This document shows positions 4,450 through 43,258 of a DNA stretch of 55,469 nt, in pieces. Below the pieces are notes generated by a model, which saw only the letters and a program-made list of their open reading frames with translations, ran no database searches and was not told where the DNA came from. Both the position numbers and the translations under genes were made by a program. Origin of the DNA: a virus (lineage: Duplodnaviria; Caudoviricetes); the IMG/VR virus record IMGVR_UViG_3300002488_000008, positions 1 to 55,469 of that record. One strand, written 5' to 3'. Each line of letters starts with the position of its first letter. Position 1 is the stretch's first letter.

Positions 4450-4705
4450 TTGGTTTGAAACATTGAAAGCCAAAACAAAAGGACAACAGGCTTTGACTGA
4501 ATGGACTAATGAAAAGTGGGATTATATTTCTCCTAAGTCTAAAAAGAAAGGAAGGTATGCACCAAAAGCAGTAGCCGATGCAATGACTAGTTCAGAAAAA
4601 GCATATGAAAACCGTAAAAAGAGAGAAGGTACTAGGAAAGGTAAGCAACATGTTCCGAGAGGAAAGTCTGCCAAGAAAAAATACAAGAGGGTTGAAGGAT
4701 TATGA
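4439..4705 (+). CDS. Small basic protein (DUF5872-like C-half) with NNWFETLK tag
   Basis: Q-x-x-L-x-x-WT-x-EKW...GRY-x-P...NR-x-KREG..GKQHV motif. GTG 4439 follows ggtggtgg. Confidence 0.7.
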   Translation: MTNNWFETLKAKTKGQQALTEWTNEKWDYISPKSKKKGRYAPKAVADAMTSSEKAYENRKKREGTRKGKQHVPRGKSAKKKYKRVEGL

Positions 4706-5103: not shown

Positions 5104-5474
5104 GTTGGAAAGATATTCTATTGAAAGACACTAGAACTGCAACTAGAAGTGCATATTTGTGGGCTTTTAACGATGACGCAATTTATTTCCCAATAATACA
5201 ATTAATCAAACAAAAAGTAAAGGGGTATCTAGATTGGGGTTGGTCTAGAAAAGAAGTTATTGATGATATTTTAAATGCAATAGCAAAAGAGTTGCCCGAA
5301 ATGATGTCTCAACATAAAGGTTTTATGGATGACTTATTATCTCCCGTTAATGACAGAGATGAAATAGGAGATTCAATATCAGATGTTGATTGGTTAGAGG
5401 TTGCTGAAAATTTTAAGGAAGATATAGAAGAGGCTATGGAATTATATCCTGAAGAGGAGTCGTGGCAAAAATGA
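5100..5474 (+). CDS. Acidic hypothetical protein with MSWKDILLK tag
   Basis: 124 aa with ATGA overlaps on both sides. Confidence 0.8.
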   Translation: MSWKDILLKDTRTATRSAYLWAFNDDAIYFPIIQLIKQKVKGYLDWGWSRKEVIDDILNAIAKELPEMMSQHKGFMDDLLSPVNDRDEIGDSISDVDWLEVAENFKEDIEEAMELYPEEESWQK

Positions 5475-5856: not shown

Positions 5857-6063
5857 TTGATAAGTTTGGACGCTAATTCTGACAACTCTTGGTTTAACAT
5901 ATTAAGAATGTCGGGAGCAGTTACTACTACTTCAGCAGGAACATCACCCCTATTTAATAATAAAGCCATAAGGAGAAAAAAGTATGGCCGCAAAAAAACC
6001 GATAAAGAAAAAACAAATGCGAATAAAAACTACAAGCGGAGCAGTATTAATCGCAGATTATAA
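5857..6063 (+). CDS. Small basic hypothetical protein with SWFNILR tag variant
   Basis: Tag-like motif near the N-terminus. Start uncertain (TTG). Overlaps the next ORF by 80 nt. Confidence 0.5.
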   Translation: MISLDANSDNSWFNILRMSGAVTTTSAGTSPLFNNKAIRRKKYGRKKTDKEKTNANKNYKRSSINRRL

Positions 6064-7225: not shown

Positions 7226-7381
7226 ATGAAATGGTTTGATATAATTAGAAAAGAAGAAGAAGAAGAGATGACTGAAGAATCTCCATCTTCGCCACCGGAA
7301 ATACCTCCGACTGAAGATGAAGAAGAACAAGTAGTTCACTTTGTTGACCCTGCTGACCAAGATGAAATGAATGAAGTTTAG
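7226..7381 (+). CDS. Acidic Pro-rich microprotein (51 aa) with MKWFDIIRK tag; not in ORF track
   Basis: SD aggtga; MKWFDIIRKEEEEEMTEESPSSPPE...NEV*. Confidence 0.75.
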   Translation: MKWFDIIRKEEEEEMTEESPSSPPEIPPTEDEEEQVVHFVDPADQDEMNEV

Positions 7382-7389
7382 GTGATATT

Positions 7390-8046
7390 TTGATAACTAG
7401 AAAAAGATGTCCTCTTTGTAATCATGAGAATAGGGAATCCCTTGAATCTGAATTAGAAAATCTAATTATTACAACAGATGAGTTAGATGAGCAAATGAAT
7501 TGGCCTAGTGGAACTAGTTCTAAACATCAGAGAAATCATATGGAGGGTTTTGTAAATTCATCTAACCCTAGATGTTCTATTTGTGTTAGCCCCGATAGGG
7601 CAGAAATAGAAATGAAATTATATGAAGCACAAGTTACTCCTGCTGAAGTTGCACATGCACTAAATTGTAGTGAAGCACAAGTTATGAGACATTTAACAAA
7701 ACATTTGCAACCTATCGTACAACAGTCTGCGGCCAATATGATAGCAACAAAAGAAGTAGATGAGATTGATACACTTAGTAATAACATTGGTAGGTTAGAA
7801 GGAAAGATAGATGAATTATTTTTAGAAACTGATTTGAATCCTAAGTACATTGATTCGTTAACTAAGTTAGCAAAAGAAATTAGAGAGAGTTTAAAATACC
7901 TAATGGAGTTTAAAGGTAAATTAGTGCATAAGAGACAGGATACAATTATTGTCGCACAAATGCAAATTGTGCAAGAAGTGTTAGCACAAAATCATCCTCA
8001 AGTTTGGTTAGATATTAAGAATAAAATGCAGGAGAAGTTACAATGA
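7390..8046 (+). CDS. Putative terminase small subunit / DNA-binding protein with duplicated CxxC-HTH-H units
   Basis: Two repeats (CPLC...H...H and CSIC...H...H) with HTH-like segments, then a coiled coil. Lies upstream of TerL. Function is inferred. Confidence 0.5.
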   Translation: MITRKRCPLCNHENRESLESELENLIITTDELDEQMNWPSGTSSKHQRNHMEGFVNSSNPRCSICVSPDRAEIEMKLYEAQVTPAEVAHALNCSEAQVMRHLTKHLQPIVQQSAANMIATKEVDEIDTLSNNIGRLEGKIDELFLETDLNPKYIDSLTKLAKEIRESLKYLMEFKGKLVHKRQDTIIVAQMQIVQEVLAQNHPQVWLDIKNKMQEKLQ

Positions 8047-13875: not shown

Positions 13876-15312
13876 ATGGAGTTAGATAATTTAGATTTAG
13901 TTTCTGCTATGGATATGGAGATATCAAAAAACTCCTTCCCTTATTTTTTTCAAAATGTATTAGGAATGATGTACCCTGCATATATGCACGAATGGTTAGA
14001 GTTGATGCAGACTACAGATAGAACAGTTATTATTTGTAGTAGGGATTTTGGCAAATCTGTTTTTATGCATAGTTGGGTAGTTTGGAATCTCGTCTTTCAA
14101 GAGCCACCATATCAAATGCTCTATATCTCATCTAACCAAAAGCAGACTCTTGTTCATATGAGAGAAATAGATAGAATGTTTAGTCATCCTGCACTTAAAA
14201 AATATAAACCAAATAGGGGTTGGGCTATTGGAAATATTCAGTTAACCAATGGTAATGCGATTTTAGAGCGTTCAGTTGGTTCTCAGATTAGAGGGCTTCA
14301 CCCTCAAGAAATAATTATTGATGACCCCTTGAAGGAATTTAGTATGGTGGGCATTCAAAAAGTTACAGATTGGTTCTTTGGAGATATGATACCTACATTA
14401 CATCATACTGCTAATTTAAGAATGATAGGTACTCCCTTTTCATATACTGATATTTTTACACAATTGGAAGAAAATGAGGCTTATAGTGTTAGAAAATATC
14501 CTTGCCTAAATTCTCTTAATGAATCTTTATGGCCGGAAAGATGGGGATATGAACAATTAATGCAAAGAAAAGCAGAAATTGGTTCTTTAAAATTTACAAG
14601 AGAATATCTTTGTGTTCCTATTTCTACGGGTACTTCTCTATTTAATCCTGAATTTGTAGATAAATGTAAATCAAGAGATTATGTTTTAAAATTAGGACAT
14701 AGAAAAGATAAAGGATACAAATATTATGTCGGTGTTGACCCTGCTATTTCTACTGATGGAGACTATAATGTAATTACTGTTATAGAAATGGATGATGAAA
14801 AAAATAAAACTATTGTGCATATAGATAGAGCAAAGAATGTAGACTTTAGGCAAAATATAGAAAAGATTAGATTAATAGGAGCAATTTTTGAACCGGAAGT
14901 TATTCTATTTGAAACAAATACTTTTGCTAAATCTTTTACTCAAGAATTAAGAAATATTTCAGATTTAAATGTTCAAGATTTTAATACCACAAGAAAAAAG
15001 AAACAAGAAATAATTCTTAGTTTACAGATGAATATTGAAAATGGTAAAATAAAATTTCCTTATGGAGATAATAATAGCAGACAGGTAACTAATCTTTTAA
15101 TTGAAGAATTGTCTATGTTTTCTATTACTCAAGCAGGTAAATTTGAAGGGGTCGGGGCTCATGATGACCTAGTAATGAGCCTTGCATTAGCCACCGCCGC
15201 CACACATAATTCTACAGAAGTGTTTATGTTGTTAGATGATATGGGCATCTTTGACGAACCTAAACAACAATTAGCCCGACCCGCTTCCGGCTTAATGGGG
15301 TTGAACTTTTAG
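13876..15312 (+). CDS. terL: Terminase large subunit
   Basis: Walker A SRDFGKS, IRG motif, Walker B IIIDD, coupling motif IGTP, nuclease VGVDPA and HDDLVMSLALA. Confidence 0.95.
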   Translation: MELDNLDLVSAMDMEISKNSFPYFFQNVLGMMYPAYMHEWLELMQTTDRTVIICSRDFGKSVFMHSWVVWNLVFQEPPYQMLYISSNQKQTLVHMREIDRMFSHPALKKYKPNRGWAIGNIQLTNGNAILERSVGSQIRGLHPQEIIIDDPLKEFSMVGIQKVTDWFFGDMIPTLHHTANLRMIGTPFSYTDIFTQLEENEAYSVRKYPCLNSLNESLWPERWGYEQLMQRKAEIGSLKFTREYLCVPISTGTSLFNPEFVDKCKSRDYVLKLGHRKDKGYKYYVGVDPAISTDGDYNVITVIEMDDEKNKTIVHIDRAKNVDFRQNIEKIRLIGAIFEPEVILFETNTFAKSFTQELRNISDLNVQDFNTTRKKKQEIILSLQMNIENGKIKFPYGDNNSRQVTNLLIEELSMFSITQAGKFEGVGAHDDLVMSLALATAATHNSTEVFMLLDDMGIFDEPKQQLARPASGLMGLNF

Positions 15313-15322: not shown

Positions 15323-16669
15323 ATGGCTAAAAAATTAAGTACAGAATTTGATGAATTAGCCAATATTGCTAGAGAAGATGAAAAGTTGGCAGAAGAAGAA
15401 CAACGAGTTATAGATGAATTAACAGTAGATAAAAGTGATTTCTTAAAATGGCTTGATAATCAACCTCTTTCTAATCATTTTGATATAGAAAAAAAATATG
15501 CTAAAAAATTTAATACTAATTTATCTCAAGCAAAAAAGGAACTAAATATTATTGTTAAAAAATATGAAGTAGAAGGACATGATGTACCAACAGTAGTCAA
15601 ACAATTAAAAAAGTATAGAAGAACACTAAAGGGAAGTGCAAAAGTAGATATTACAAATTCGATAGACAATCTAATAAAAGCATATTCTGACCATCTTAGC
15701 ACTAGTATTGATGATATATATTGGATTAAAAAATACAAGCCAATATTAAATGATATGGTATGTAGTGAAGATAATATTATAAAATTATCTTATGTTTCTG
15801 AGGAGTCTACAAGAAGAGAGATTATTGATACTCTTTGTAAATATTGGGAAGATAAATTACATATGAGGGATATGCCATATAATTCAGATTACGCTAAATT
15901 AAATAAGTCCATGTCTGTTTCAAAAAGAGAATTCAAATCCATATTGAGAAAATATATGACAAGTACGACAACTAAAGATATTATTAAACATGAAATATTA
16001 AAGGCAGTATGTGAAAATAACGGTATTTCTTCTAGACAAATACATGAAAGATTACCGACTAGATTATTTAAAAAAACTTCACCAACCATTATTTCTAAAA
16101 TGGCTAAAAGTATGGATATAACAAATGTAAATGGTGCATTCTATAAATTAAATGATGATATTAAAAAAGATATTTATGCCTATACTGCGGCCTTCATAGA
16201 TTCAGATGGGTATATTACTATGGATAAAAATTACAATCCTAGAGTTGGTTTGATAGCCACAGGAGAAAGAGGTAAAGCATTTATGATGGAAATGCATAAA
16301 TCTCTAGGTTGTGGTAGACTACATCTTGACCAAAAATCACCACAGGCTACTAGGTCTGTTCAAAGATTAAATTTCTATTCGGGTGATGATGTGGTAAAAA
16401 TATTAACAAAGTGTAGGCCACACTTTAAAATGAAAGGGGCTAACGCAGACATATTATTGGAACTAGTAAGAATGAAGAAATCGCATAAAAAGGCAGAATG
16501 GTATGAATCTAGAAGAGAGGAATTATTTAAATTAATGAAATATGAAAACCATAAAGACCACGTAGGGTATGACTTTTCTCAGTATGGAATAGACCCAACT
16601 ACTGTTGCTAAATTTCATGAAAATTCTAAAATGTTTGAAATGGATAGACTAGAAGGGATTGTGGTTTAA
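15323..16669 (+). CDS. LAGLIDADG-domain protein with long N-terminal extension
   Basis: Single LAGLIDADG helix YTAAFIDSDGYI at about aa 287, followed by a typical LAGLIDADG core. A wHTH-like segment lies upstream. Confidence 0.85.
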   Translation: MAKKLSTEFDELANIAREDEKLAEEEQRVIDELTVDKSDFLKWLDNQPLSNHFDIEKKYAKKFNTNLSQAKKELNIIVKKYEVEGHDVPTVVKQLKKYRRTLKGSAKVDITNSIDNLIKAYSDHLSTSIDDIYWIKKYKPILNDMVCSEDNIIKLSYVSEESTRREIIDTLCKYWEDKLHMRDMPYNSDYAKLNKSMSVSKREFKSILRKYMTSTTTKDIIKHEILKAVCENNGISSRQIHERLPTRLFKKTSPTIISKMAKSMDITNVNGAFYKLNDDIKKDIYAYTAAFIDSDGYITMDKNYNPRVGLIATGERGKAFMMEMHKSLGCGRLHLDQKSPQATRSVQRLNFYSGDDVVKILTKCRPHFKMKGANADILLELVRMKKSHKKAEWYESRREELFKLMKYENHKDHVGYDFSQYGIDPTTVAKFHENSKMFEMDRLEGIVV

Positions 16670-18336
16670 TGGCTGAAAGAAGAAGATTTAGTTTTACTAG
16701 TTTATTTAGAAATACTACACCTAAGCCACTAGACCGTAGTGTATATAATATTGGAATACAAGAAAAAGATACATCTTATTTATTGACTTCTCCGATAATA
16801 TATCATATTGCTCAACAATCTGTAATTGTTAGAACTTGTACTACCCAATTAAAACAAGAAGTGTTTAGGAGAGGATATATGTGGGAAGAAAAATTTGCAT
16901 TAAGATGTAATAAATGTGGAAAGGAATACAAATCTCCAGTCAAAGAATGTGGAGATTGTGGAAGTTTTGATTTTTCTAAGCCCGACCCTAAACAATTAAA
17001 GTATGCTAAAAAGATGTTAGGTGGTTATGTTAATAAATCTGAACAAATGTTTATTGATGTTTTAAAAGAAATGGAAGATGATTTGAACATTATGGATGAT
17101 GCATATTTAGTAATGGTTAAAGAATATTATTTAGATAACGACAATAATATAAAAATGCATAGAATAAAAGAAGTTTATCGAGGTGACCCTATTGGTATGC
17201 ATATTTATTCAGATGAGAAAGGAGAGAGAGGCAATACGGGATATACTTGTTTAAGACACAGAGATACTATTAGTCAAAGTTCTACAGGAACTTGTGAAAC
17301 ATGTGGGTGTAAATTATATCCAGTACACTTTGTTAACAGAACTAATGGGCAAGAACAGTATTTCATCAAGGGAGAAGTATTACATTTTAGTAAATATTCT
17401 CCAAGTAGAATATATGGCTTGTCTCCAATAATTACTTTATGGAATAACGTTACAACATTAATTGCTATGGAAAATTATGTTAATTCTTCTTATACAAAGG
17501 CAAGAATGCCAAAAGGAATTTTAGCAGTACAAACTAGAAATATGGATTCTATGAAGTCTTTTTGGAGAGGTGTTAAAGAAAAAATGGAAAAAGACCCACA
17601 CTTTATTCCAGTAATGGGAATTGAAGCAGAAGGTGGAAAGGGTTCTATTGAATGGGTAAAGTTCATGGATAGTCTAAAAGAAATGGATTATATGTCAGTT
17701 AAGGATGATTTAAGAGATAGAATATCTGCGTTTTATGGAGTTAGTAAAATCTTCATGGCAGACAACTCTGCTAGTGGTGGATTAAATAATGATGGTATGC
17801 AAATACTTGTAACTAATAGAGCGGTAGAAATGGCACAAACAATATGGAATAACTATGTATTCCCCTTTATGACAAAAGAATTTGGTATTCTTGATTGGGA
17901 ACTAAAATTACCACCATCAGAAGAAGAGGATGAGATTGCTAAATTAAGAAAGAGAGAGATAGAAGTAAATGTTGCGGCATCAATTAAAAACTTAGGGTTT
18001 GAAGTTGATATGGATGATGAAGGAAGGTTTACATTTTCTAAACCTCCTCCTGCACCTAAAGCAGAAGGAGAAGAAGAGGAAGAAGAAGAAATAGAATTAG
18101 ACCCTTATGCAGGTACAAACATAGACCAATCACAGTTAGGTCAAATGATGGAAGCAGGTACAAAACCTAGTATGGCAGAAGCAGGACAACCTGAAAAGGT
18201 AAAATCAGAAGATGAACCCCCTGCTACTAGAAATAAACCATCTATGTCAAGAGGGCCTGATAAAAGATTTAGTGGGCTACCCGCAGATGCAGGTAATCAA
18301 AATGTGGATAAAAGAACAGAGAGGCGGGTAGGTTGA
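16669..18336 (+). CDS. Portal protein (HK97-like) with Cys-rich insertions
   Basis: EVLHF..SPSRIYGLSPI, P.GIL and ISAFYGVSKIF portal motifs; located after TerL. Confidence 0.92.
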   Translation: MAERRRFSFTSLFRNTTPKPLDRSVYNIGIQEKDTSYLLTSPIIYHIAQQSVIVRTCTTQLKQEVFRRGYMWEEKFALRCNKCGKEYKSPVKECGDCGSFDFSKPDPKQLKYAKKMLGGYVNKSEQMFIDVLKEMEDDLNIMDDAYLVMVKEYYLDNDNNIKMHRIKEVYRGDPIGMHIYSDEKGERGNTGYTCLRHRDTISQSSTGTCETCGCKLYPVHFVNRTNGQEQYFIKGEVLHFSKYSPSRIYGLSPIITLWNNVTTLIAMENYVNSSYTKARMPKGILAVQTRNMDSMKSFWRGVKEKMEKDPHFIPVMGIEAEGGKGSIEWVKFMDSLKEMDYMSVKDDLRDRISAFYGVSKIFMADNSASGGLNNDGMQILVTNRAVEMAQTIWNNYVFPFMTKEFGILDWELKLPPSEEEDEIAKLRKREIEVNVAASIKNLGFEVDMDDEGRFTFSKPPPAPKAEGEEEEEEEIELDPYAGTNIDQSQLGQMMEAGTKPSMAEAGQPEKVKSEDEPPATRNKPSMSRGPDKRFSGLPADAGNQNVDKRTERRVG

Positions 18337-18662: not shown

Positions 18663-21272
18663 ATGGATTGGGAAGATATTCTAAAAGTTAGGGATAAATC
18701 TCAAGAAAAACTACAAGAATTTTTAGAACTACAAAGGCGTGGTCAAGGAAAAGGAATAACTTCAGCAATTGAACAAAAAAGAAAAGAGCAGGAATTAGAA
18801 CCAAGATTCAAAGATTTGGAAAGACTAGAAGAAGGTCTTGAAACTTTAGTAGCACCAATCACAAGGGAAATAAAAGATAAAGATGGTAAGTCAATTAAAG
18901 AAACAGTAAAAAATCCATTCCCAACTCCATCTTTAAGTGAAACACAAAAACGAAGGTCGGATATTAGACCTATTGAACCTAATGAACTTAAAATACTCAA
19001 TAAAAAATCTCTTTGGAAAGTAAATCGTAAAGTAAGAATAATCTTTGAAAGAACTTTAGAAGAGATAAAGACCTCAAATCCATCGTTTACACCAAAGTAT
19101 GATGTTAGAGATTTATCTCACGCTTCTTTATTTTTAATGATGTTATCTAAAATAGATTTAAATTTACCCCCACCAACAATGGATGGTAAAAAAGGTTCTA
19201 AATATAAACCTACTATAACAGAAAGTAAAATTCCATTTACTTCATTAGAGTCTGTTGATAAATATTTAAAAGACATTGATAAATCCATAAAAGAGATAGA
19301 AAAACAAATTTCAGTGTCATTAGGTAAAACAGTTGATATAAGTGAAGATTCTGACATTTTACAATTACTTAATCAAGTACGGGCAGATAAAGATGATGAT
19401 GAAATAAAACAACTCAAATTAAAAATAGAAAATTTAAAAACACTTAAACACACAATAAAAACATTATCAGAAAAAACAATTCCAACTCTTAAAAAGGACA
19501 AAGAGAAAATAGAACAAGAAAAGGATAAAAATAAAAAAGAAGAAGCACGTAAATCATATAGACTATATTGGCGTAAAACAATGAACATTGTTGATACAAC
19601 AATAGATGCGTTAGAAAGTAACTTTGGTAGTAATTATTTTCAAAATTTAATAACAAGCACAAAACAAACTCCACCTTCTACAACAATTAATACTTATTTT
19701 CCCGATAGTAAAAAAAATAAACAAACACGTTTGTTAGATATGCTAAAAAGTGAAAAGTATGTTATGGAAGTAGGTAAAAATAATAAATTTATTATGAAAG
19801 AAGATGACCTAAAAAAATTAATTGAAAAATTAGATAATATTAGATTTAATCCTAATCAAAATTTTGCCTTCTTACAACCAAAATATCAAAAGAGAAAGAA
19901 AGGTAAAAAATATTCTATATATGGTGCGACAGTTGAATCTAATCCACAATATAATCCTTTATTTAAAAGTCCTAATAAAGCATTAGAATCTACATTAGAT
20001 ATTCTAAATATTTTAGGTGGGAAATATTTTTCTAAACAACGCAAAGTACGCACTAAAGAGGATAAGAAAAAATACACTAAAACTGTATCTAATAATAGAC
20101 TAATACGAAGATTATTAGATGACTGGTCAGATAAAACTCTAGAAGAAGTAAAAAGTAGAGTAAGAGCAGTAGAACAAATAGGATTATTAGAACCTAAAAA
20201 TGTCACAAGAATTAATAAAATTTTATTTAGAGGAAATGTTGATAACTTTTTCGTAAAAGATGAACACCCATTCATAAATTATGATAGTGGATTTAGAAAT
20301 AATCTAAAACCTCAATGGGATGAAGATAAAAATTCTTGGGGAACAACAGATAGTGATGGTGATTGGGAAGATAGAATCATATTATATGATAATAAAAAAT
20401 CTACTGATATATGGAGAGAAATTGTCACTAAGTTGAACCTAAGTGAAAGTGGTTTAGAAGTATCTTCTACGAGAAAAGAAAGAAAAGATAGTGAATCAAA
20501 ATCTTTAAAATTAATATCTGAAATACTACAAGCATCAGATAAACTAAAAAATGTTAAAACAAGACAACAGATATTGTCTAAATATAAGAAATTAAAAGAA
20601 GTAATTCTTACTCCAAATAAAAATAGTTTATCTCCTTCTGATAAAAATATTGCTATTTCACAATTAAAAAATGAAGATAGATTAATATCAGATATGTATA
20701 GTTTTATGACAACCTTTGATGATGTATTAGAATTAATGGAAGAAAATATTCCTTCTGATTCTGCTACTTTAAGAGAAGCCCTTTTAGAAGGAGAGGAAAA
20801 TTGGGCAGTAGGTGTTACTGGACGATTACAAGGAACAAATAGAATATTGGTATCGTTTATTGAACCCTTAGAATTTTTATATCAGATTTTATTTTCATTA
20901 GGTAGAACAGTTGATATTGAAGATTCTGACATTTTTCAAATTATTAAAAATCAAAAAATGGATTTAGATATTAGTGAACAATTAAAAGAAATATCTGAAC
21001 TAGAAAAGAGATTGAAAGAGCAAAAGATAGATACTGAAAAAATAGAAGAATATGAAAAATTATTAGAAACTCAAAAGAAATCTATAGAAATTTTCAAAAA
21101 TACAGATTTTGTTCGCAATCAAGATGTAGAAAATGGTATAGAAGAACTATTAGAAAGAGATGATATGGTTAAGAAAAGTTATGAGTTTGAAGAATTAACC
21201 TTAGATGAACAAATAGCAAAGGCTTTAAGAAAAGTAAAGCGTAAGAAAGCATTATTGGAGAGGAGTTTATGA
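18663..21272 (+). CDS. Large K/E-rich protein (869 aa) with MDWEDILK tag; candidate internal virion protein
   Basis: SD gaggtg; tag; coiled-coil composition. Confidence 0.8.
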   Translation: MDWEDILKVRDKSQEKLQEFLELQRRGQGKGITSAIEQKRKEQELEPRFKDLERLEEGLETLVAPITREIKDKDGKSIKETVKNPFPTPSLSETQKRRSDIRPIEPNELKILNKKSLWKVNRKVRIIFERTLEEIKTSNPSFTPKYDVRDLSHASLFLMMLSKIDLNLPPPTMDGKKGSKYKPTITESKIPFTSLESVDKYLKDIDKSIKEIEKQISVSLGKTVDISEDSDILQLLNQVRADKDDDEIKQLKLKIENLKTLKHTIKTLSEKTIPTLKKDKEKIEQEKDKNKKEEARKSYRLYWRKTMNIVDTTIDALESNFGSNYFQNLITSTKQTPPSTTINTYFPDSKKNKQTRLLDMLKSEKYVMEVGKNNKFIMKEDDLKKLIEKLDNIRFNPNQNFAFLQPKYQKRKKGKKYSIYGATVESNPQYNPLFKSPNKALESTLDILNILGGKYFSKQRKVRTKEDKKKYTKTVSNNRLIRRLLDDWSDKTLEEVKSRVRAVEQIGLLEPKNVTRINKILFRGNVDNFFVKDEHPFINYDSGFRNNLKPQWDEDKNSWGTTDSDGDWEDRIILYDNKKSTDIWREIVTKLNLSESGLEVSSTRKERKDSESKSLKLISEILQASDKLKNVKTRQQILSKYKKLKEVILTPNKNSLSPSDKNIAISQLKNEDRLISDMYSFMTTFDDVLELMEENIPSDSATLREALLEGEENWAVGVTGRLQGTNRILVSFIEPLEFLYQILFSLGRTVDIEDSDIFQIIKNQKMDLDISEQLKEISELEKRLKEQKIDTEKIEEYEKLLETQKKSIEIFKNTDFVRNQDVENGIEELLERDDMVKKSYEFEELTLDEQIAKALRKVKRKKALLERSL

Positions 21273-21625
21273 GTTGGGAAAATATTCTCAAAAAAGATGA
21301 ACCCTCATTATTTAGTTTAGAAGATGCTATAGGTAAGACTGATTCTAAAAGAAGAAAGAAACTAAAAAAAGTTCTTCAAGCAAGTGAGCCTACAGAATTT
21401 TTTGGTCAAGAAATGACAAAACTCACAGAACTAATAGATGAGTTAAAAGATTTAGATTTAGTAAAGACAGATAAAAAATTAACTAAAGAGATGAAAGGGT
21501 TTGAAGAAAAGAATTTAGATATTGTTGCTACGGCCTCAAAATTAAGAAAGGATTATGAAACATTATACAATCAATTACGTGGATTAGTATATCCAAAAAG
21601 TAAAGGGAAATTAGGAGACAAATAA
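21269..21625 (+). CDS. Coiled-coil protein with MSWENILKK tag
   Basis: 118 aa; SD gaggag; ATGA overlap. Confidence 0.8.
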   Translation: MSWENILKKDEPSLFSLEDAIGKTDSKRRKKLKKVLQASEPTEFFGQEMTKLTELIDELKDLDLVKTDKKLTKEMKGFEEKNLDIVATASKLRKDYETLYNQLRGLVYPKSKGKLGDK

Positions 21626-21626: not shown

Positions 21627-21722
21627 ATGCAAGAAATAAATTGGAAAGAATACTTGAGGGGAGAACTTCGGGAATGTTTTAAGACTATAGCAGAGGATGA
21701 AGCGGTAGGTGGTTACTATTAG
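21627..21722 (+). CDS. Putative microprotein (31 aa) with NWKEYLR tag variant
   Basis: SD aggag; MQEINWKEYLRGELRECFKTIAEDEAVGGYY*. Confidence 0.4.
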   Translation: MQEINWKEYLRGELRECFKTIAEDEAVGGYY

Positions 21723-21942
21723 TGGAGAGTCTGAGGAAATATTATTATTATTAAAAGAGTTAGTTTCTAAGGTTAAAACTTTAGAAGATGCAGTATATAA
21801 TAAAGATAATATTTTAATGAAATCAGGGTTTGTTGTAGTAGATACACCAACACCTGCTATTAGAAATGAACATACTGTTAGTGACATTTCTAAAATGGAT
21901 TGGTCACAAATACATGACACTGTTAATAAAATGGGGAAATAG
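21709..21942 (+). CDS. Small coiled-coil, scaffold-like protein ending in ISKMDWSQIH
   Basis: 77 aa; C-terminus resembles the scaffold C-terminus. Start uncertain. Confidence 0.7.
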   Translation: MVTISGESEEILLLLKELVSKVKTLEDAVYNKDNILMKSGFVVVDTPTPAIRNEHTVSDISKMDWSQIHDTVNKMGK

Positions 21943-22222: not shown

Positions 22223-24841
22223 ATGCCTCAGACAGGAATCAGTTTTGAAAAGAAAACTAATGATTTATCAAAAAGAGTTTTAGACTTTTTTGAAAGAGTT
22301 AGATATTCCTTTTTATCGGCTAAAGATGACCCTTCTGAATATGGGTCTAAGTGGAAATCATCAGTAGAAGAAATAAGAGATATGTTTGATTCTTTAGATG
22401 ACTTTTCTAAAGAATTAAAAAAATATGTAGAAGAAAAAGATGTTTTTTCCGGTGAAGCCAAAGACCCTACATCTGTTACTGCACAAAGAATATATGATAA
22501 TATAAAAGAAATGCGGTTTAAATCTAAGTCTGTATCTGACCCCTTTTCAAAAACATTAGGTGATGATGTAGTTGATAAATTGTTAGAAAAGGAACACCAT
22601 CTAATTGCTTTTTTACATTATGCTATTCGCTCACACAATAATGCTATACCTAAACAAGTTTGGATAAAAAATGATTTACCTCCCGATGAAATTACTCAAG
22701 GGTCTATGGGTTTAGACTTAGAAATAGATGATATTGAATTGTATATCAAAGAACATTATGGGGAAAACAAAACAACAGATAGATTATCTAGCAAAATTAA
22801 AGGGGCATTAAAAAGATTAGAAGATATGTTTATTGAAAAATATGGGGAAGATAATTGGGAAGATTTAGAAGAAGTAGATATTCCTACTTTAAAGAAGGCA
22901 GAAACTAAAAGTGAAGAGGAAAAGTCTGCTATAGATTTTCTTATCCCAAACAAACCAATGTTTAGAATTTTTGAAATAGATGATTTAAAAGAAATTAAAG
23001 GATTAAGTGGAGAGTTTGTTGTTCAAGAAAAATATGATGGAATGAGAATTCAGATTCATAAAGTAGATAATAATATAAAAATTTATTCATATAATAAAAT
23101 AGATATTACTGATAAATGTCCTGAACAAGTAGAAGAAATAAAAAAGAAACATTTTGGTAGTTGTATATTAGATGCAGAATTAATGTTATTTTTGGACGAT
23201 GAACCACTACACAGAGCGGAAACAATATCTTATGTTTTTAAATTAAAAGATGAAAATAAGAAAGGAGTATTGAAGGCTCATGTTTTTGATATCATGCAAC
23301 ATGAAGGTAAATCTGTTATGGAAGAAGCATTAAGAGAAAGAATTAATATTTTATTGTATCAATATTCACAACATTCTTCTGAAATGTTGGCATTCCCGTC
23401 TAAAAAAGATACACGTATGGCTGATTCAATAAAAGAGGTTTTAGAATATTCTAAAGATATCATGAAACTTCCTGCATCTGAGGGAGTAGTAATAAAAGAT
23501 ATGGAGTCAACATATTATCGTGGAGTAGCACAAAATCCAAAATGGATTAAGTGGAAAAAGTTTGTAGACTTAGATGTAATTGTATTAAAAGATAGAAAAA
23601 CTAAAAGTGGTTTACATTCTTATACTATGGGAATTGGGCCAGTTCCCGCTTCTGTTGTTAGAGAGTATGAAACAGTTGAGTTTGAAGATAAGGAATATCT
23701 AGAAGTAGGTAAAGCATTAAACACTAAAACCAATGTAGAAGTTGGAAAAGTAGTAAGAGTAAAAGTAGATGAAGTAAAAAAGAAAGGTAAGTCCTTTAGT
23801 CTATATTCTGCTAAGGTGATAGAAGTTCCTGAAGTTTTAGTTTCTGATACATTTGAGACATTGGAACACTTAGCATCTAAAACTAAAAAATCTTTAACTG
23901 ATGCTTTAGATTTCTTAGGGGATAATGTATTAAGAACACCTTATAAAATTATGAGTGGAGTAGGAGAGAGTCAAAAGAAAGTTAAGAAAGCATATTATGT
24001 TACAGATGAGATACACGGTACTGCTGAAATTATACTAAAAGAAGATTTAGATGGATTTACTATTTATGGTTTTGAGGGAGATACATTAATGCAAAAAAAT
24101 GCACTTCATAATATAGATATATGGAAAGAACAACTTACTGAAATCATAAAAACTAAAAGGTCAACATTAAGAATTGCAATTAAAAATGAAATTTTAGAAT
24201 CAGGTAGACCCAAAGTAACATTTGAAAAGATAGCAGAATTTGTTAGAGATAACTATCCCGAAACATTTGAAGATGTATTTGATAATAAAGAAGATAAATT
24301 AATGAGTTGGATGAAAACAGAAGGTGATGTAAGTTTTGTTTATCATCACCCGAACAAATTTAGTGTGCAAAGTGATGAACTTACAAAAGATATAGAAGTA
24401 TTACAAAAAGAAGACAGAAAGGGTAAGTTTGTAATTAAACGTAGAGAAGATGAAAATATTGATTTTATTATAGAATATAAAGATAAAAGAAATGCTTGGA
24501 CAATAGAAATTGAAGACTCCGAAGATATTTTTAATTTATTTGGTAAGTCCGGTAAATATCCTGCTATTGTTGCAAAAAATCTAGATAGCGGTAAAACTTT
24601 AGATGAAGGAGAGTTACTTCTTGGAGTACAAAAACAAGGTTATCATGAATATAAATTAAATGGGGATAAATTTGATACTAGAATTCATATAAGAGTTTTG
24701 CCAGTAAATGAAAAAAATGTATGGCTTGCATGGACAGGTAAAAAACAAGAAATGTTACCATTAGATGAGGATGAAAAATTGTGGGATATTACAGAAGATA
24801 AGTATGCAAATTTAGAGTTTCCACAAAAAAATAGCACGTAA
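22223..24841 (+). CDS. Multidomain ATP-dependent DNA ligase-like protein
   Basis: Motif I EKYDGMR (K270), III ILDAEL, IIIa VFDIM, IV EGVVIK and V WIKWK, then an OB-like region. Extra N- and C-terminal domains. Confidence 0.88.
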   Translation: MPQTGISFEKKTNDLSKRVLDFFERVRYSFLSAKDDPSEYGSKWKSSVEEIRDMFDSLDDFSKELKKYVEEKDVFSGEAKDPTSVTAQRIYDNIKEMRFKSKSVSDPFSKTLGDDVVDKLLEKEHHLIAFLHYAIRSHNNAIPKQVWIKNDLPPDEITQGSMGLDLEIDDIELYIKEHYGENKTTDRLSSKIKGALKRLEDMFIEKYGEDNWEDLEEVDIPTLKKAETKSEEEKSAIDFLIPNKPMFRIFEIDDLKEIKGLSGEFVVQEKYDGMRIQIHKVDNNIKIYSYNKIDITDKCPEQVEEIKKKHFGSCILDAELMLFLDDEPLHRAETISYVFKLKDENKKGVLKAHVFDIMQHEGKSVMEEALRERINILLYQYSQHSSEMLAFPSKKDTRMADSIKEVLEYSKDIMKLPASEGVVIKDMESTYYRGVAQNPKWIKWKKFVDLDVIVLKDRKTKSGLHSYTMGIGPVPASVVREYETVEFEDKEYLEVGKALNTKTNVEVGKVVRVKVDEVKKKGKSFSLYSAKVIEVPEVLVSDTFETLEHLASKTKKSLTDALDFLGDNVLRTPYKIMSGVGESQKKVKKAYYVTDEIHGTAEIILKEDLDGFTIYGFEGDTLMQKNALHNIDIWKEQLTEIIKTKRSTLRIAIKNEILESGRPKVTFEKIAEFVRDNYPETFEDVFDNKEDKLMSWMKTEGDVSFVYHHPNKFSVQSDELTKDIEVLQKEDRKGKFVIKRREDENIDFIIEYKDKRNAWTIEIEDSEDIFNLFGKSGKYPAIVAKNLDSGKTLDEGELLLGVQKQGYHEYKLNGDKFDTRIHIRVLPVNEKNVWLAWTGKKQEMLPLDEDEKLWDITEDKYANLEFPQKNST

Positions 24842-24872: not shown

Positions 24873-26087
24873 GTGCAAGCGATGCAGATGTTAAGAAAAG
24901 AGGATAACACCTCTGGTCATTTTAGCATTTTAAAGTCTGATGATTTAGTTATTGGAGGTTATGCTTCTATTGAAATAGTAGATAAACAAAACGACTTAAT
25001 TACATTAGAAGCATTAAATGACGCAGTTGCAAAATATATGAGTGAAAAGAAATACAGAAATGTAATGTCTAATCATTCTAATGTTCAAGTTGGAGAAGTA
25101 ATTGAAAACTACAGAGATAAAAATGGAATGCTTCATAAAACAGAAGTAGATAATGTTGGTTTTTATGTTGTTATTAAATTAAGAGATGACATAGAAAAAG
25201 CAAAAGAAATTTCAAGAGGAATTAGAAAAGGAACACTACGCTCCTTTAGTATTGGTGGACAAGCAATATCAAAGCGTAGTAAAAAATCAGATGAGTTCGG
25301 TCAATACAATGAAATTGACAAGTTAGAGTTACATGAGGTAACTATATGTGAAAAGGGAATTAATCCCGAAGCGAGATTCGACATTTTAAAACAAGATGTT
25401 GGAGGTAATAAAATGAGTGATAAACTGGAAAAAGCACTTGAGGAGTTGAACGGCTTGATGAAACAAGTTAGTGATATTCACAAGGAAGAAGAAAAAGATG
25501 CCGATATGAAGAACGCAGGTGACATGAGTTACATGGATTCAGAAGAAGAAAAAATGAACTATGAAAAGACTGATAGCGAAGAAGAAATGAAAGCCGATGA
25601 TGAGATGGACGATGATGAAGCAAAAGCATTAGACATTGACAATACTCATTCAGAAGCAGGAGAAGAAGTAGTAAGTGGTGGAAATCCAACTGCAACCCCT
25701 GCACCGCTTAAAGTTTCTAAAGGATTAGAAGATGCTGATTTCAGTACTTTGAATCTAAGTCAAGAAAATGTAGAGAAGGCTTACGAGGCTTTCAAAGCAG
25801 AACGTCTTGAAAAACTCGCATACGATTCCCTAAGCAAGCAATTTGAAACAAGACTTGCTGAAGAATTAGAAGTTAAGAAAGCAATGGCAGAGAGAAACGA
25901 ATATGATGCTATCTCTGAAGTTGCGGCTCTTAAAGAAGAATTTGCGGAACTACGCAAATCACTATCTGAAACAGAAGTACGCAAAGCACAAGAAGTTGCC
26001 TTGCCCGAAGGATTCCCAACATCAATGGATGCAATAGCAGACATGTCTTGGGGAGATATACACACATTAGTTGGAAGGAGAGATTAA
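24873..26087 (+). CDS. Prohead maturation protease (HK97-type) fused to scaffold domain
   Basis: IGGYAS..VDKQND, H (SNHS), catalytic SFSIGG and LHEVTICEKGINP, followed by an acidic coiled-coil C-terminal half. Confidence 0.92.
   Translation: MQAMQMLRKEDNTSGHFSILKSDDLVIGGYASIEIVDKQNDLITLEALNDAVAKYMSEKKYRNVMSNHSNVQVGEVIENYRDKNGMLHKTEVDNVGFYVVIKLRDDIEKAKEISRGIRKGTLRSFSIGGQAISKRSKKSDEFGQYNEIDKLELHEVTICEKGINPEARFDILKQDVGGNKMSDKLEKALEELNGLMKQVSDIHKEEEKDADMKNAGDMSYMDSEEEKMNYEKTDSEEEMKADDEMDDDEAKALDIDNTHSEAGEEVVSGGNPTATPAPLKVSKGLEDADFSTLNLSQENVEKAYEAFKAERLEKLAYDSLSKQFETRLAEELEVKKAMAERNEYDAISEVAALKEEFAELRKSLSETEVRKAQEVALPEGFPTSMDAIADMSWGDIHTLVGRRD
25413..26087 (+). CDS. Nested in-frame scaffolding protein (224 aa) from an internal start
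   Basis: Strong SD GGAGGT (25401-25406), then in-frame ATG 25413 right after the protease domain. Confidence 0.65.
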   Translation: MSDKLEKALEELNGLMKQVSDIHKEEEKDADMKNAGDMSYMDSEEEKMNYEKTDSEEEMKADDEMDDDEAKALDIDNTHSEAGEEVVSGGNPTATPAPLKVSKGLEDADFSTLNLSQENVEKAYEAFKAERLEKLAYDSLSKQFETRLAEELEVKKAMAERNEYDAISEVAALKEEFAELRKSLSETEVRKAQEVALPEGFPTSMDAIADMSWGDIHTLVGRRD

Positions 26088-26089: not shown

Positions 26090-27505
26090 ATGACATACAT
26101 AAATACAATAAGAGATTTGGAAGCAAGCACATACGGAATGGCCGGAGCAAGCGGTAACGCCCTACTAAAGAGTAGTGGTGTTATTGGTGGTTTTGGTAAT
26201 GTTGTAGGCGGAGCGGCACAAGGCCACGATGCGGCAACTAACTTAGCCGGTGGAGCGGCAGGTTTAGGAGACTTGTATAACGTTCTTTACGGACAAAAAG
26301 TTTGGTCAATGTTAAATCAAGAAGTTAACGTTTTGTCAATGATTGCTAAAAGGCCATATACATCAAGTGGTTGGAGAATACTAAAATCCCGTCCTGCTGG
26401 TGGTTCAGATGCGGCTTTCGGAATAGGAAATACTGCGGTTGACTCAAATGTTACTGATTTATCTACCCCTAGAGCAGACCAAATTGGTGGTGTAGAAGAA
26501 AACGCAACATTAGGTGGAGCAAATGGATTCAAAGCATTGTCTCCTGAATACACTAAACTATTTACAAGCCCTAAAACAATAGCACATCTGTTCGAGTTCT
26601 CTGAACTTGGAATGGAAATGGCCGCTATTGATGATGGTGTTGGCGATATACGTGCAATTGTTAGAGAAGACATGGGTAAGCATCACGCTGAAGTTCAAAG
26701 TAAGATGTTACTAATGCCTTTAGAAAGATATGATGATGCAACTGCAACTAACATAACAAGAAATTATACTTCTTTAATGAAGATAGTTTCTTCTAACAAA
26801 GAAATTGCGGCTATGGCTAATGCTGATATGACGGCTATGGGTGCGGCTGATGGCAGTTCTAACGTAACTGATTTAGTAGACGTTACTAAATTATTTGGTG
26901 CTAATAGAGCAGACAATAATGGTGTAACTGTAAGTGGTTCAACATATACAGGTGTTAACGATTTCATGAGTGCAGAAGTTGATTTTGGTACAAATTATAC
27001 AGGTGGCCCTAGAGTATTAACTCTAACAATATTGAATGATATGCTACGAAGAATACGTGTTAACGGTGGAAATCCAAAAGTTATTTTAACAGGATACGAT
27101 ACTATACAACATATATCTGACTTACTACAAAGCCAAGAGAGATTTATGGATAGGAAAGAAATTGTTCCTACACATAATGGTGTTCGTGGAGTTAAAGGTT
27201 CAGAAGTTGGTTTCAGAGTTGCAACATACTATGACATACCAATTATCCCATCAAAGGATATGCCTAAAACACACAAAGCAAGTCTAAACCCTGCTAACCC
27301 ATTGAGTGATATATTAATTCTAGATACTGACCATCTATGGTTAGCGGTTATGAAGCCTACACAATACTTCGAGGACGGAATTTCAAATGGAAACCCATTC
27401 GGTGTTGGTAAACTTGGTAATCAAGGAATGTACCGCACTATGGGAGAAACATGTTGTTCCTTCTTTAAAGGTCAAGGTAAGATTACTAACTTGAAGAGTG
27501 CTTAG
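26090..27505 (+). CDS. Major capsid protein (HK97 fold)
   Basis: Follows the protease. 471 aa from ATG 26090 (SD ggaaggag). Motifs YG.KVW..LN.E.N, PKTIAH.FE.SE, PKVILTG and IPIIPSKDMP; low-K/E, highly expressed codon style. Confidence 0.9.
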   Translation: MTYINTIRDLEASTYGMAGASGNALLKSSGVIGGFGNVVGGAAQGHDAATNLAGGAAGLGDLYNVLYGQKVWSMLNQEVNVLSMIAKRPYTSSGWRILKSRPAGGSDAAFGIGNTAVDSNVTDLSTPRADQIGGVEENATLGGANGFKALSPEYTKLFTSPKTIAHLFEFSELGMEMAAIDDGVGDIRAIVREDMGKHHAEVQSKMLLMPLERYDDATATNITRNYTSLMKIVSSNKEIAAMANADMTAMGAADGSSNVTDLVDVTKLFGANRADNNGVTVSGSTYTGVNDFMSAEVDFGTNYTGGPRVLTLTILNDMLRRIRVNGGNPKVILTGYDTIQHISDLLQSQERFMDRKEIVPTHNGVRGVKGSEVGFRVATYYDIPIIPSKDMPKTHKASLNPANPLSDILILDTDHLWLAVMKPTQYFEDGISNGNPFGVGKLGNQGMYRTMGETCCSFFKGQGKITNLKSA

Positions 27506-40321: not shown

Positions 40322-43258
40322 ATGGTAAATGTTTATAGTGGTAGTTCTTATAAATTAGTATTTCCACTATTAAGTAAGGGTTTTTTAAAATTAAATTTTC
40401 GTGATAATAATATAGACCATTCTATTACTACTACTGCGGCAACAGGATACTCTAGTGGTTCTACTTCTTTAGAATTAACAGATGGTTCTGCTTTTCCTTC
40501 TACCGGAACAGGAACTATTGACGGCGTACCTTTTTCTTGGACGGCTAAAAATAATTTTACGTTAATTGTTCCAAACTTAGGAGCAAATTATTCTGCGGGA
40601 GTTACTATAACTAACGATGTAACGAGTCTTAATAATATATGGAAATATACAGATTCATTTACTTTAGAAGCCATTTTAACTCCATATGATGTAAATGGAT
40701 ATGCAAATAGATTAAGTGGTAATGGGGTATTAACATCAACAAAAACTAGACCATATCTAAACGATTCAATTACTAGCAATCGAACTCACTATGAAAGTGT
40801 TGATACATTAGGAGATACAAATTTTTTAACACAAAAAATGATGATATTTCATAATACTAATTTAAAAATATATTTACAAAATACTACCACTACTAATTTT
40901 AATCAACCTGCTGAATATAAAGTGGTTGCTGAAATAACTAAAAATGGAGTAACTAAAACAATATCTAGCGATACTGTTATCACATCTACTAATGTCTTAC
41001 GTGGTAAATACGATGTAAATGGTTATTATGAAAATGGGCTAAATACTAGATTTACTAGATTATCTACAAATGCATCTAATGTTGCTCCGAGTGCAGTTGT
41101 TACAATTAGTGGTAGTGGATTACCCGTTAATTCTAGTACTAGTGCTACTGCGGCTACAGGTTCATACACTGTAAATAATCATGGTAGTACTGCCGCAGTT
41201 TCTAGTGAAGTAAAAGCAACTGCTACAATTGATATTGGTAATAGTATTAATAGTGGTACTGACTTTACTGTTCCTGCTGACCAAAGCGTAGTAGCGGCCA
41301 CTGGAACTATACAACTGAAAAGTGTTCAAGCCCATACGACTTCTAATAATGGTACAGAAATAATTCTTTATCATGATGGCACACAAAGTTCAGATACATA
41401 CAGATTTTTTGCTAGAAATGCTGGTACTGAAGACGCAGGTGAAGCATTAGGAGCGTTGACATTTGGGGCAAGAGCCTTTGCTTATCATAGAGTAGCCGGA
41501 GATATTGACCTTACTGCACAAAATTTAGCAACTGCCATAGAAAGAGCCATGCCTACAGGAGATGTTACAACTTCTTATAATGCCTCTAACGATACTATTA
41601 CCGTAACTATGCCACCTAGTTCACAATTTAATAATAATATAACATTAGGAGTTAACTTAGGTGGAACAGATTTTGTTGTATCGGGTATGGCAAACGGTAA
41701 TGCAGGTACAGTAGTAAATAGTTATCTTACAATTACAGACCATACAAACACTACTAAAAATTATAAGGCTTCAGATTCAAATGCACAATCAACAGGAAGT
41801 ACAGGAACAAGTAACGGAACTGCCGTAGTATATTATAGAAATGGGGCTAGTCTAAATGCTACTGCTAATAATTTAAAAAATGCTATTTTACATGCTAACG
41901 GGCATGGTTCTAATAAGTTTAGTGTTAGTACTAATAATCCTTTAACGTTAACTTCTCAGGCTACGGGTGTTGCGGGTAATAGTAGTGGTTCTACTAGTAT
42001 TGCTATTTCTGATACAGGATTAATAGATGCAGATTTAACTTATACGCAGTTTACAGGAGGGGCTGATGAATATAAAAATAATAATTTTTATGTTATGATA
42101 GATAATACTGCTTCAGGTAACGTAACTAAAAATTATCAAATGGCAGTAACAGGTGATGCCACATTTACAACTGGAAGCACAGGAACTAGTTTGAACGGAA
42201 CTGCGGTAGTATATTTTGAAAAAGGAGCAAATAATACTGCTACGGCAGGAAATCTAGAAACGGCTATTGAAAGTAGTAATGGACATAATGGTGGAATACT
42301 TGTTACTGGAAGTGGAACTTCAAGAACTCTTACTCAAGCAACAGTGGCAAGTAGCGGTAATTTAGGAGATACGACTATAACCAATTATGGAAGTGGATTT
42401 TCTAATTCTGATTTTTCAGGTGGTGCAGTTGCTACAACTACAACCCCCGATAAATACTTACAAATTACTGATGCGGCAGGAACAATAAGAAGATATCATG
42501 CGGCTACAACTGAATCTCAAAACTCTACTGCTACAATAGGTGGAGTAATTTACGTTTATTTCACTAATAGTTCCACTGCTTCAACTCTTGCTACTAATCT
42601 TAAAAGTGCTATTGAAAGTAGTAATGGTCACAATGGTAGTATTAGTGTTTCTAGAAGTGGAGCAGTTCTAACATTGAGTATTACTACTAATAATAACCAA
42701 GCAATAAGTGAAAACTTTGATAGTAATTTAGTAATAAGTAATGCAGGAACTATAAGTAATAATGTGTATTCGTGGAATACTTCTAACAATTTAGTTATTA
42801 ACGTACAGGCAGGAGAGGCAGATAATCTTGGTAGTGGTTCAAAAATATATGATTCTACTACTAAACTAATTGGAACTGTAAATTCAATTAGTGGTACAGC
42901 AATCACATTAACTTCTTCTCCTGCTACAGCAGTTACTAGTACTATTTATGTTGACCAACCTAAAGAGGCATTATATTTAGAAGAAATGTTTAAAATTTCT
43001 TTTGTTTATTATTCTTCGGGAATGGTAGAATTATATCTTAATAATGCAAGATTGGTAAGAGAAGATTCACAGATTTTAAAGTTTCAATTACATGGGTCTG
43101 ATTGTCAAATTGGTAGAGGAAGTAGTAATCAAGAACAGTTTTATGGTGAATTGTATGAGATAGGATATTATACTTCTGCTCAACCTACTGTAGATATAAC
43201 TACATTAACTCCTAGTTTTAAAAATATTTTATTTTATTATAGGTTTGGTGATACATAA
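40322..43258 (+). CDS. Tail-associated protein: split LamG/concanavalin-like domain with repeated inserted domains
   Basis: SFTLEAILTP (N-part) and VELYLNN...QIG....QFYGELYEI (C-part). Internal repeats TA.NL..AI...NGH. Confidence 0.65.
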   Translation: MVNVYSGSSYKLVFPLLSKGFLKLNFRDNNIDHSITTTAATGYSSGSTSLELTDGSAFPSTGTGTIDGVPFSWTAKNNFTLIVPNLGANYSAGVTITNDVTSLNNIWKYTDSFTLEAILTPYDVNGYANRLSGNGVLTSTKTRPYLNDSITSNRTHYESVDTLGDTNFLTQKMMIFHNTNLKIYLQNTTTTNFNQPAEYKVVAEITKNGVTKTISSDTVITSTNVLRGKYDVNGYYENGLNTRFTRLSTNASNVAPSAVVTISGSGLPVNSSTSATAATGSYTVNNHGSTAAVSSEVKATATIDIGNSINSGTDFTVPADQSVVAATGTIQLKSVQAHTTSNNGTEIILYHDGTQSSDTYRFFARNAGTEDAGEALGALTFGARAFAYHRVAGDIDLTAQNLATAIERAMPTGDVTTSYNASNDTITVTMPPSSQFNNNITLGVNLGGTDFVVSGMANGNAGTVVNSYLTITDHTNTTKNYKASDSNAQSTGSTGTSNGTAVVYYRNGASLNATANNLKNAILHANGHGSNKFSVSTNNPLTLTSQATGVAGNSSGSTSIAISDTGLIDADLTYTQFTGGADEYKNNNFYVMIDNTASGNVTKNYQMAVTGDATFTTGSTGTSLNGTAVVYFEKGANNTATAGNLETAIESSNGHNGGILVTGSGTSRTLTQATVASSGNLGDTTITNYGSGFSNSDFSGGAVATTTTPDKYLQITDAAGTIRRYHAATTESQNSTATIGGVIYVYFTNSSTASTLATNLKSAIESSNGHNGSISVSRSGAVLTLSITTNNNQAISENFDSNLVISNAGTISNNVYSWNTSNNLVINVQAGEADNLGSGSKIYDSTTKLIGTVNSISGTAITLTSSPATAVTSTIYVDQPKEALYLEEMFKISFVYYSSGMVELYLNNARLVREDSQILKFQLHGSDCQIGRGSSNQEQFYGELYEIGYYTSAQPTVDITTLTPSFKNILFYYRFGDT

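Follow-up and report, generated by a model that had tools for sequence, protein, structure and literature searches.

Results

The DNA analyzed here, hereafter the window, is the whole 55,469-nucleotide (nt) stretch of the IMG/VR virus record IMGVR_UViG_3300002488_000008, a fragment of a magrovirus-type marine archaeal tailed virus. At 24873-26087, on the plus strand like the nested, 77-aa, MCP, and tagged ORFs described below and directly upstream of the gene for the major capsid protein (MCP), lies a gene for a prohead protease-scaffold fusion of 404 amino acids (aa) with a GTG start (P0001). It ends in a short peptide whose first half recurs at the N termini of about a quarter of the window's genes. 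A first-pass annotation had called the product a protease and scaffold, and this call held up: residues 26-175 match Pfam Peptidase_S78 (PF04586; E 1.4e-9, 38.8 bits, cut-off 21), they also match a PHROG of head maturation proteases (E 6.4e-17), and the MCP gene adjoins. The candidate catalytic residues H68 and S126 are invariant across 14 sequences, down to 33% identity. In the C-terminal half, an acidic and disordered region is followed by a long helix (297-367). In an AlphaFold2 model, helices are placed at 183-204, which an acidic disordered stretch follows, and at 297-367 (predicted local distance difference test, pLDDT, 73-83), with short ones at 385-389 and 393-403. We took only secondary structure from this model because it is too poor to judge whether the tail folds back on the protease. 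By its sequence, the open reading frame (ORF) encodes a prohead protease of the S78 type whose C-terminal half is scaffold-like.

The protease-scaffold ends in a conserved motif. Bases 26043-26084 (ATGTCTTGGGGAGATATACACACATTAGTTGGAAGGAGAGAT) encode MSWGDIHTLVGRRD (M391-D404), the last 14 residues, exactly the C-terminal peptide that the first-pass annotation had read, and a TAA stop follows at 26085-26087. The core of the motif, MSWGDIHTLV (M391-V400; 26043-26072), has an invariant W and H and a nearly invariant M and D in 21 unique scaffold tails. The remainder, GRRD and the stop (26073-26087), is not conserved: residues after the motif differ between relatives (RGN, RKF, GGNL, SEYER), and in the window GGAAGGAGAG (26073-26082) doubles as the ribosome-binding site for the MCP. 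Other subclades have different tail residues and place this site 3′ of the scaffold stop. The AlphaFold2 model, with a mean pLDDT of 47.7 overall, has a helix at residues 393-403 (block pLDDT 53-69). We rejected an independent 14-aa ORF at 26043, which has no ribosome-binding site upstream and the same frame as the scaffold.

Defining the motif as M-x-W-x-[DE]-[IVL]-H-x-h-[VA], 13-16 residues before the stop, we found it in 42/45 related IMG/VR loci (44-99% identity); the remaining three stop short of the C terminus at contig ends. Its variants include MSWGDIH, MTW[ED]DVH, MSWEDVH, MTWDELH, MDWADIH, and LSWGELH. In a second, sister clade (~42% identity, 80 loci, 1.03 Mb), at least 75/80 loci end in M[SDT]W[DES][ED]VHxLA plus a few residues, and 20/20 further genomes also carry the motif. 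Among the best 150 of 1142 library homologues, 15 show a strict and nine a looser match within the last 30 residues, and most of the nonmatching sequences in this set are fragments or have other C termini. A lack of conservation had been named at the outset as one result that would refute mimicry of this peptide by cargo proteins; the motif is conserved, and this test does not refute the claim. We conclude that the scaffold tail is probably a capsid-incorporation peptide.

Two further products share this C terminus. The first is a small coiled-coil protein of 77 aa with a GTG start (21709-21942), which ends in SDISKMDWSQIHDTVNKMGK and carries the same motif at 21895-21924. Members of this family open with a helix at the N terminus (LLKELVxKVKxLE), continue with a Pro-rich linker, and carry the motif ~14 residues before their C terminus. 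The protein is present in 24/45 loci, with four more that have Asn for His; some of the remaining loci may not extend far enough upstream to include it. It also occurs in the second clade, there right after the portal gene. Comparing the family with scaffold tails in hhalign gives a probability of 91% (E 1e-6, 49 columns), and the scaffold profile finds the protein in six further genomes (E 8e-7 to 3e-4). All of its 47 database relatives are unnamed or "hypothetical." Between the 77-aa gene and a 118-aa gene upstream of it lies a 31-codon ORF (21627-21722; MQEINWKEYLRGE...), in which a Trp followed by KEYL faintly, and perhaps by chance, resembles a shifted form of the N-terminal peptide described below.

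The second product is a probable nested scaffold. Just past the protease domain, Met181 (ATG at 25413) opens an ORF of 224 aa (25413-26087, M181-D404) in frame with the protease and with the same C terminus, and a GGAGG ribosome-binding site (25401-25405) stands 7 nt before it. A Shine-Dalgarno-like (SD-like) site precedes this internal start in 20/20 unique relatives, while the residues it encodes vary (DVGGNK, KMEDRT, NKGEKK, KKVKN, ERGDEK, KEDRE); for comparison, such sites precede 28/38 gene starts and 38/318 (12%) internal ATGs in the window. Database ORFs P0015, P0118, and P0134 start at exactly Met181. Because the SD-like site is kept while the encoded residues change, translation of the nested 224-aa scaffold from ATG 25413 is likely. 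Read at the level of protein sequence, the protease-scaffold, the probable nested scaffold, and the 77-aa protein have one C-terminal module in common. The motifs themselves, their conservation and positions, the paralogy of their carriers, and the internal start signal are direct observations.

A related peptide opens many genes of the window. Fifteen ORFs, about a quarter of its genes, start with M-[SDNK]-W-x-x-[IV]-[LIV]-[KLR] (hereafter tags; consensus M-S-W-[EKFQ]-[DEN]-I-L-K). From 5′ to 3′ they begin MNWQNILLK (912-1214, 100 aa), MSWFTIIKK (1220-1828, 202 aa), MSWQDILKG (1825-2190, 121 aa), MSWKDIIKN (2196-2372, 58 aa, with a zinc ribbon), MSWQDILKN (2378-2620, 80 aa), MSWFDIIKR (2626-2889, 87 aa, basic, with a zinc ribbon), MSWENILKE (2899-3039, 46 aa, with a zinc ribbon), MSWKDIVKQ (3995-4249, 84 aa), MSWFEVLKK (4246-4449, 67 aa, very basic), MSWQIILKE (4702-5103, 133 aa), MSWKDILLK (5100-5474, 124 aa), MKWFDIIRK (7226-7381, 51 aa, very acidic), MSWQNILKA (8043-10229, 728 aa), MDWEDILKV (18663-21272, 869 aa, directly 3′ of the portal gene), and MSWENILKK (21269-21625, 118 aa, a conserved head-module gene). 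Three of these carriers (8043, 18663, and 21269) sit inside a tightly packed string of terminase, portal, and head genes. The number of tagged genes varies greatly between relatives, and one locus (L017) has twelve of them between portal and protease.

Across the window and the 45 loci, 75 tag starts fall on the coding strand and none on the other, and W occupies position 3 in 79/497 dereplicated gene starts, 16-fold over background. Beyond the tag these proteins have nothing in common, with a mean column identity of 4%. Searching 79 of them against Pfam gave nine single-member matches only (five zinc-ribbon families, DUF6321, DUF5754, PAP2, and YkyA), so that no common Pfam family emerged among these 79, nor any function from Pfam or PHROGs among the tagged proteins. 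Of 81 tagged proteins, none has a hydrophobic 19-mer, 38 have an isoelectric point above 9, and 16 have four or more Cys.

Several other gene starts are of interest beside the tags. Large post-portal proteins in three loci (L022:4178-5776, L023:4076-6409, L010:3796-5631) begin MSFMDIL(L)K or MNFFDLLK, with Phe for the tag's Trp. Upstream and in frame of ATG 5984 (5887-5990), the window encodes DNSWFNILRM, with a tag-like SWFNIL that no ATG precedes, and this 386-aa gene may use an unusual start and carry a tag. In the second clade, the gene after the portal (L058:2923-3270, L099:3190-3549) starts MDLLKMNP or MELRKMNP, which could, speculatively, be a remnant or forerunner of the tag's DILK half. 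The 46-aa tagged zinc-ribbon ORF (2899-3039) overlaps an untagged 265-aa ORF (3015-3812) by 25 nt in another frame.

The likeness between tags and scaffold tail is far beyond chance. A strict pattern, M[STD]W.[DE][IV], occurs nine times in the plus-strand proteome (56 segments, 18,426 residues). Within-protein shuffling (2000 rounds) predicts 0.0165 occurrences, with no round giving more than one match, and the pattern is absent from the three reverse-strand frames. Eight of the nine are ORF starts, and the sole internal one is the scaffold C terminus. Chance likeness is excluded because nine strict matches stand against 0.0165 expected. A looser pattern, M.W..[ILVM][ILVMH], matches 17 times when all six frames are searched, always in plus-strand ORFs and always at a terminus (15 N-terminal, two C-terminal). 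We also scored Met-started 10-mers of the first clade, with the Met left out, against a profile of the C-terminal motifs of the second clade; at positions 2-6, tags score +7.8 bits and other Met-started 10-mers -11.8. As first noted by the earlier annotation, the DNA at 26043 and at the start of the tagged ORF at 2899 is also identical over the first ten bases (ATGTCTTGGG). Ser at position 2 is encoded by AGT in 13/14 Ser2 tags of the window, so the two resemble each other as proteins, and it is incidental that the DNA is identical to that at 2899.

Tags and scaffold motif also co-occur. Among 25 records of at least 65 kb that contain the tag DNA pattern, 20 have the protease-scaffold, including 12/12 of those at least 90% complete, and all 20 of these proteins end in the motif. 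This co-occurrence adds little because these genomes form one lineage. A predicted complex of the MCP with a 36-residue tag alignment scored 0.00 in both runs and gives no answer either way.

The surroundings of the protease-scaffold gene are those of a head module. The record is 59% complete (55.5 kb, against 86-96 kb in its relatives), and terminase (13876-15312) and portal (16669-18336) genes both lie upstream. Between portal and protease, an 872-aa protein (22223-24841) contains an ATP-dependent DNA ligase domain at residues 261-445, with long unassigned stretches on its N- and C-terminal sides, and lies inside the head module. Philosof et al. (PMC5434244) describe a ligase among the structural genes as characteristic of magrovirus groups A and B. 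The nearest cultured relatives are haloviruses; the protease domains of HVTV-1/HCTV haloviruses are 29-30% identical to that of the window, and halovirus MCPs are 23-26% identical to its MCP. The MCP itself (26090-27505, 471 aa, HK97 fold; Pfam SU10_MCP, E 1.1e-9) has a highly conserved N-terminal arm, which reads YINTIRDLEASTYG among 22 unique sequences and is likewise strongly conserved in the second clade (YVRTVTDMERYYYG). When the scaffold and MCP profiles were run against PDB sequences, only coiled-coil or chance matches came back (E >= 0.2). Beyond the tail genes are two giant ORFs, 43258-50217 (2319 aa) and 50570-55468 (more than 1633 aa, running off the window end).

Discussion

Conservation at the extreme C terminus of three head-module products suggests a common handle for entry into the procapsid. 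We infer each binding step, and packaging itself, as follows. The last ~20 scaffold residues would form a short helix with a variable tail and act as a handle into the assembling procapsid. Judged by position and by the precedent of known scaffolds, the most likely partner of this handle is the inner face of the HK97-fold MCP, perhaps its conserved N-arm. The same handle would be present on the full-length protease-scaffold, on the nested scaffold started at 25413, and on the 77-aa protein (21709-21942). With one handle on three products, protease, scaffold, and auxiliary protein would co-assemble through one site, which fits the logic of lambda C/Nu3, herpesvirus UL26/UL26.5, and the scaffolding protein (SP) and CpmB of 80alpha. 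In one lineage, the tag octapeptide M-S-W-x-[DEN]-I-L-K would repeat the first half of this handle. The most likely reading of the tags is a signal like the capsid targeting sequence (CTS) of T4, which would recruit to the procapsid, via the MCP or the scaffold core, small soluble proteins in a changeable assortment. Taken by itself, targeting of the tagged proteins to the capsid is possible, with a chance that we put somewhat short of even. The combined proposal, a tail handle for procapsid entry on three products together with CTS-like tags, seems to us evenly poised between right and wrong.

Several observations weigh against this proposal. The AlphaFold2 model of the whole protease-scaffold is poor (mean pLDDT 47.7, predicted template modelling score 0.22), and the nearest cultured relative, halovirus HVTV-1, does not have the motif at its protease C terminus. 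Part of the match between tag and tail is trivial, owing to the initiator Met. At positions 7-10, tags score -12.9 bits against a background of -10.2 and are unlike the scaffold tail; tags without exception have Leu, Ile, or Val at position 7, where all C-terminal instances have His or Asn. At position 4, 60 unique tags have E, K, F, or Q save for two Met and one Asp; Gly and Ala, found there in the main scaffold variants, do not occur in tags, although Glu and Asp are present in some scaffold variants. Some tags have the W moved by one to several residues (MWFEEVKK, MNDWKEILK, MEEWQNILK). We found no co-variation between the scaffold variant (MSWG, MTW[ED], MDWA, or LSWG) and the tags of the same genome. 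The second clade has the motif on two proteins and no tags: the tag regex has two and three matches on the two strands of 1.03 Mb, there is no N-terminal residue enrichment in 1110 gene starts, and five genomes show only the two C-terminal sites. Finally, at least 15 cargo species would be a large load for the capsid of a ~90-kb genome.

These points define what is shared. As sequences, half of the motif (positions 1-6) is common to tags and tail and the other half is class-specific. The match that the first-pass annotation saw between scaffold tail and tags is real over positions 1-6, and no better than background over positions 7-10. Because the second clade keeps the tail motif without tags, the motif is independent of the tags, and the tags could at most be a later mimic. 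The resulting picture is of an old tail handle and a tag that may be a younger copy of its first half.

Alternatively, the tags may be unrelated to the capsid and act as a lineage-specific recognition peptide for another viral or host partner (a chaperonin, protease, or regulator), their likeness to the tail being a coincidence of two short amphipathic helices. We consider this somewhat unlikely. The second clade, with the same scaffold motif, does without tags, only half of the motif is held in common, and a known virion function was found in Pfam or PHROGs for no tagged protein. Most tagged genes also encode small zinc-ribbon or basic proteins, in a cluster that resembles an accessory or early gene block. 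However, agreement at S/T/D2, W3, D/E5, and I/V6 in register with the Met is improbable by chance (0.0165 expected per proteome), three tagged genes lie in the packaging and head string, and L017 has as many as 12 in the interval from portal to protease. The scaffold motif is likewise present in 12/12 near-complete tag-bearing genomes, though these are one lineage.

Tags could also be strict mimics of the tail, which was the reading of the first-pass annotation: as in encapsulin cargo peptides, they would dock in the same MCP pocket as the scaffold C terminus, with the Trp buried, and compete for it. Two independently defined motifs do agree in their consensus M-S-W-x-D/E-I at positions 1-6, there are tagged genes inside the head module, and competition between CpmB and the 80alpha scaffold for one site offers a precedent (described in parts of PMC5644958). 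Against a common pocket, positions 7-10 differ, and His7 is invariant in scaffolds and never found in tags. The co-variation of tags and scaffold C terminus proposed with this reading is absent: in genomes with an MTW scaffold, tags have S in 12/14 cases and T in none, and in those with an MDW scaffold S in 5/12 and D in none, so that tags stay MSW; and the second clade has the motif without tags. Binding of tags to the scaffold is an equally good model because the T4 CTS loads proteins into the scaffolding core, according to parts of PMC3012670. We regard docking in one pocket as unlikely. Of the earlier reading as a whole, the protease-scaffold beside the MCP gene, the conserved motif, and the likeness to the tags stand; the restriction of this likeness to positions 1-6, the absence of co-variation, and the tag-free second clade weaken the rest.

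A third possibility concerns the tail itself, which might serve portal docking, scaffold self-association, or binding to the protease domain and not bind coat protein. The tail past the helix is not conserved, and in the second clade the small motif protein is encoded right after the portal gene. Yet an extreme C-terminal position, an MCP gene next downstream, and a peptide common to protease, scaffold, and auxiliary protein are the layout of known coat-binding tails, as parts of PMC5644958 and PMC12749128 describe it. The MCP N-arm is moreover equally conserved across the clades. Lambda and herpesvirus are further cases of such a coat-binding tail layout. We hold a function other than coat binding to be quite improbable.

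The shared letters might instead reflect a signal in the nucleic acid, such as a module for translation start or an RNA signal ahead of the MCP gene. In favor of this, ATGTCTTGGG is identical at 2899 and 26043, the motif lies within 48 nt of the MCP start, and the last codons of the scaffold gene form the MCP ribosome-binding site. This reading is scarcely credible and is rejected because of synonymous variation, with codons varying while residues stay (Ser AGT/TCT/TCA; Ile ATA/ATT/ATC; Asp GAT/GAC; several for Leu). The 77-aa protein also ends in the same motif in a different DNA context, and 13/14 Ser2 tags use AGT, not TCT.

Magroviruses are abundant in the surface ocean, uncultured, and known from gene lists only. 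In the magrovirus papers PMC5434244 and PMC11706807, as far as their main texts go (the supplements, which may list genes, aside), no N-terminal motif or scaffold protein is mentioned in the parts considered here. A concrete assembly model for these viruses would follow from a single C-terminal handle carried by protease, nested scaffold, and auxiliary protein, and capsid targeting by the tags offers a testable reason for the same eight residues opening a quarter of the genes; the tag-free sister clade is a natural control. Should the tags load cargo, archaeal viruses would gain their first described capsid-targeting signal, and a short peptide would be at hand with which to fill an HK97 shell. 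More ambitiously, one magrovirus lineage may have made a portable N-terminal tag out of the first half of a coat-binding helix on its scaffold and may so pack 10-20 different, fast-changing proteins (in the window the products of a quarter of the genes, those of 728 and 869 aa among them) into its HK97 capsid for delivery with the DNA. This is doubtful on present evidence; if true, an archaeal virus would possess a programmable cargo system of natural origin, and the sister clade would still show the ancestral state (handle, no tags). The principles are known; what is new is the combination, in an archaeal virus, of an S78 protease-scaffold, a nested scaffold, and a small protein with one tail, together with a tag that repeats half of this tail on a quarter of the genes.

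Comparison with Known Systems

Lambda C/Nu3 and herpesvirus UL26/UL26.5 are nested protease and scaffold pairs with one C-terminal MCP-binding tail. The window's gene resembles them in having an N-terminal protease, a C-terminal scaffold, and an adjoining MCP gene, and in an internal in-frame start with its own ribosome-binding site that would yield a shorter scaffold with the same C terminus. Unlike these pairs, its protease is of the S78 (HK97) type, and a third, separately encoded small protein bears the tail.

In HK97 itself, the gp4 protease reportedly has a C-terminal encapsidation signal (work of Duda, Oh, and Hendrix from 2013), and the S78-family protease of the window would similarly enter the prohead via its C-terminal end. 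The HK97 scaffold is the delta domain of the MCP, whereas that of the window is fused to the protease. Encapsulin cargo-loading peptides are short terminal peptides that load proteins into an HK97-fold shell, and by analogy the tags would likewise bring unrelated proteins into such a shell; unlike encapsulins, the window's virus has a terminase and a portal, and its tag is N-terminal. The terminase and portal genes rule out a shell of the encapsulin type, without packaging machinery.

A further counterpart of the proposed handle is 80alpha, in which, as described in PMC5644958, the final 16-21 scaffold residues fold as a helix and hook against the N-arm of the coat protein (CP) and CpmB of SaPI1 competes for the site. 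As with SP and CpmB, two distinct proteins of the window (the scaffold and the 77-aa protein) have a like peptide at the extreme C terminus, and the tail may share the form of the SP/CpmB peptide, a short amphipathic helix plus a few residues, with its helix predicted only by the poor AlphaFold2 model. Unlike in 80alpha and CpmB, both carriers belong to the virus itself and not to a parasite, and the tail past the helix is not conserved.

For the tags, the nearest counterpart is the T4 CTS, the sole thing common to diverse internal proteins, which it loads into the scaffolding core (as given in parts of PMC3012670). Here too, a short conserved N-terminal peptide is the only common feature of a diverse, changeable set of small proteins. 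The window differs in having 15 putative carriers in 55 kb, including proteins of 728 and 869 aa, and in belonging to an archaeal virus with an S78 protease, whose tag resembles the C terminus of the virus's own scaffold.

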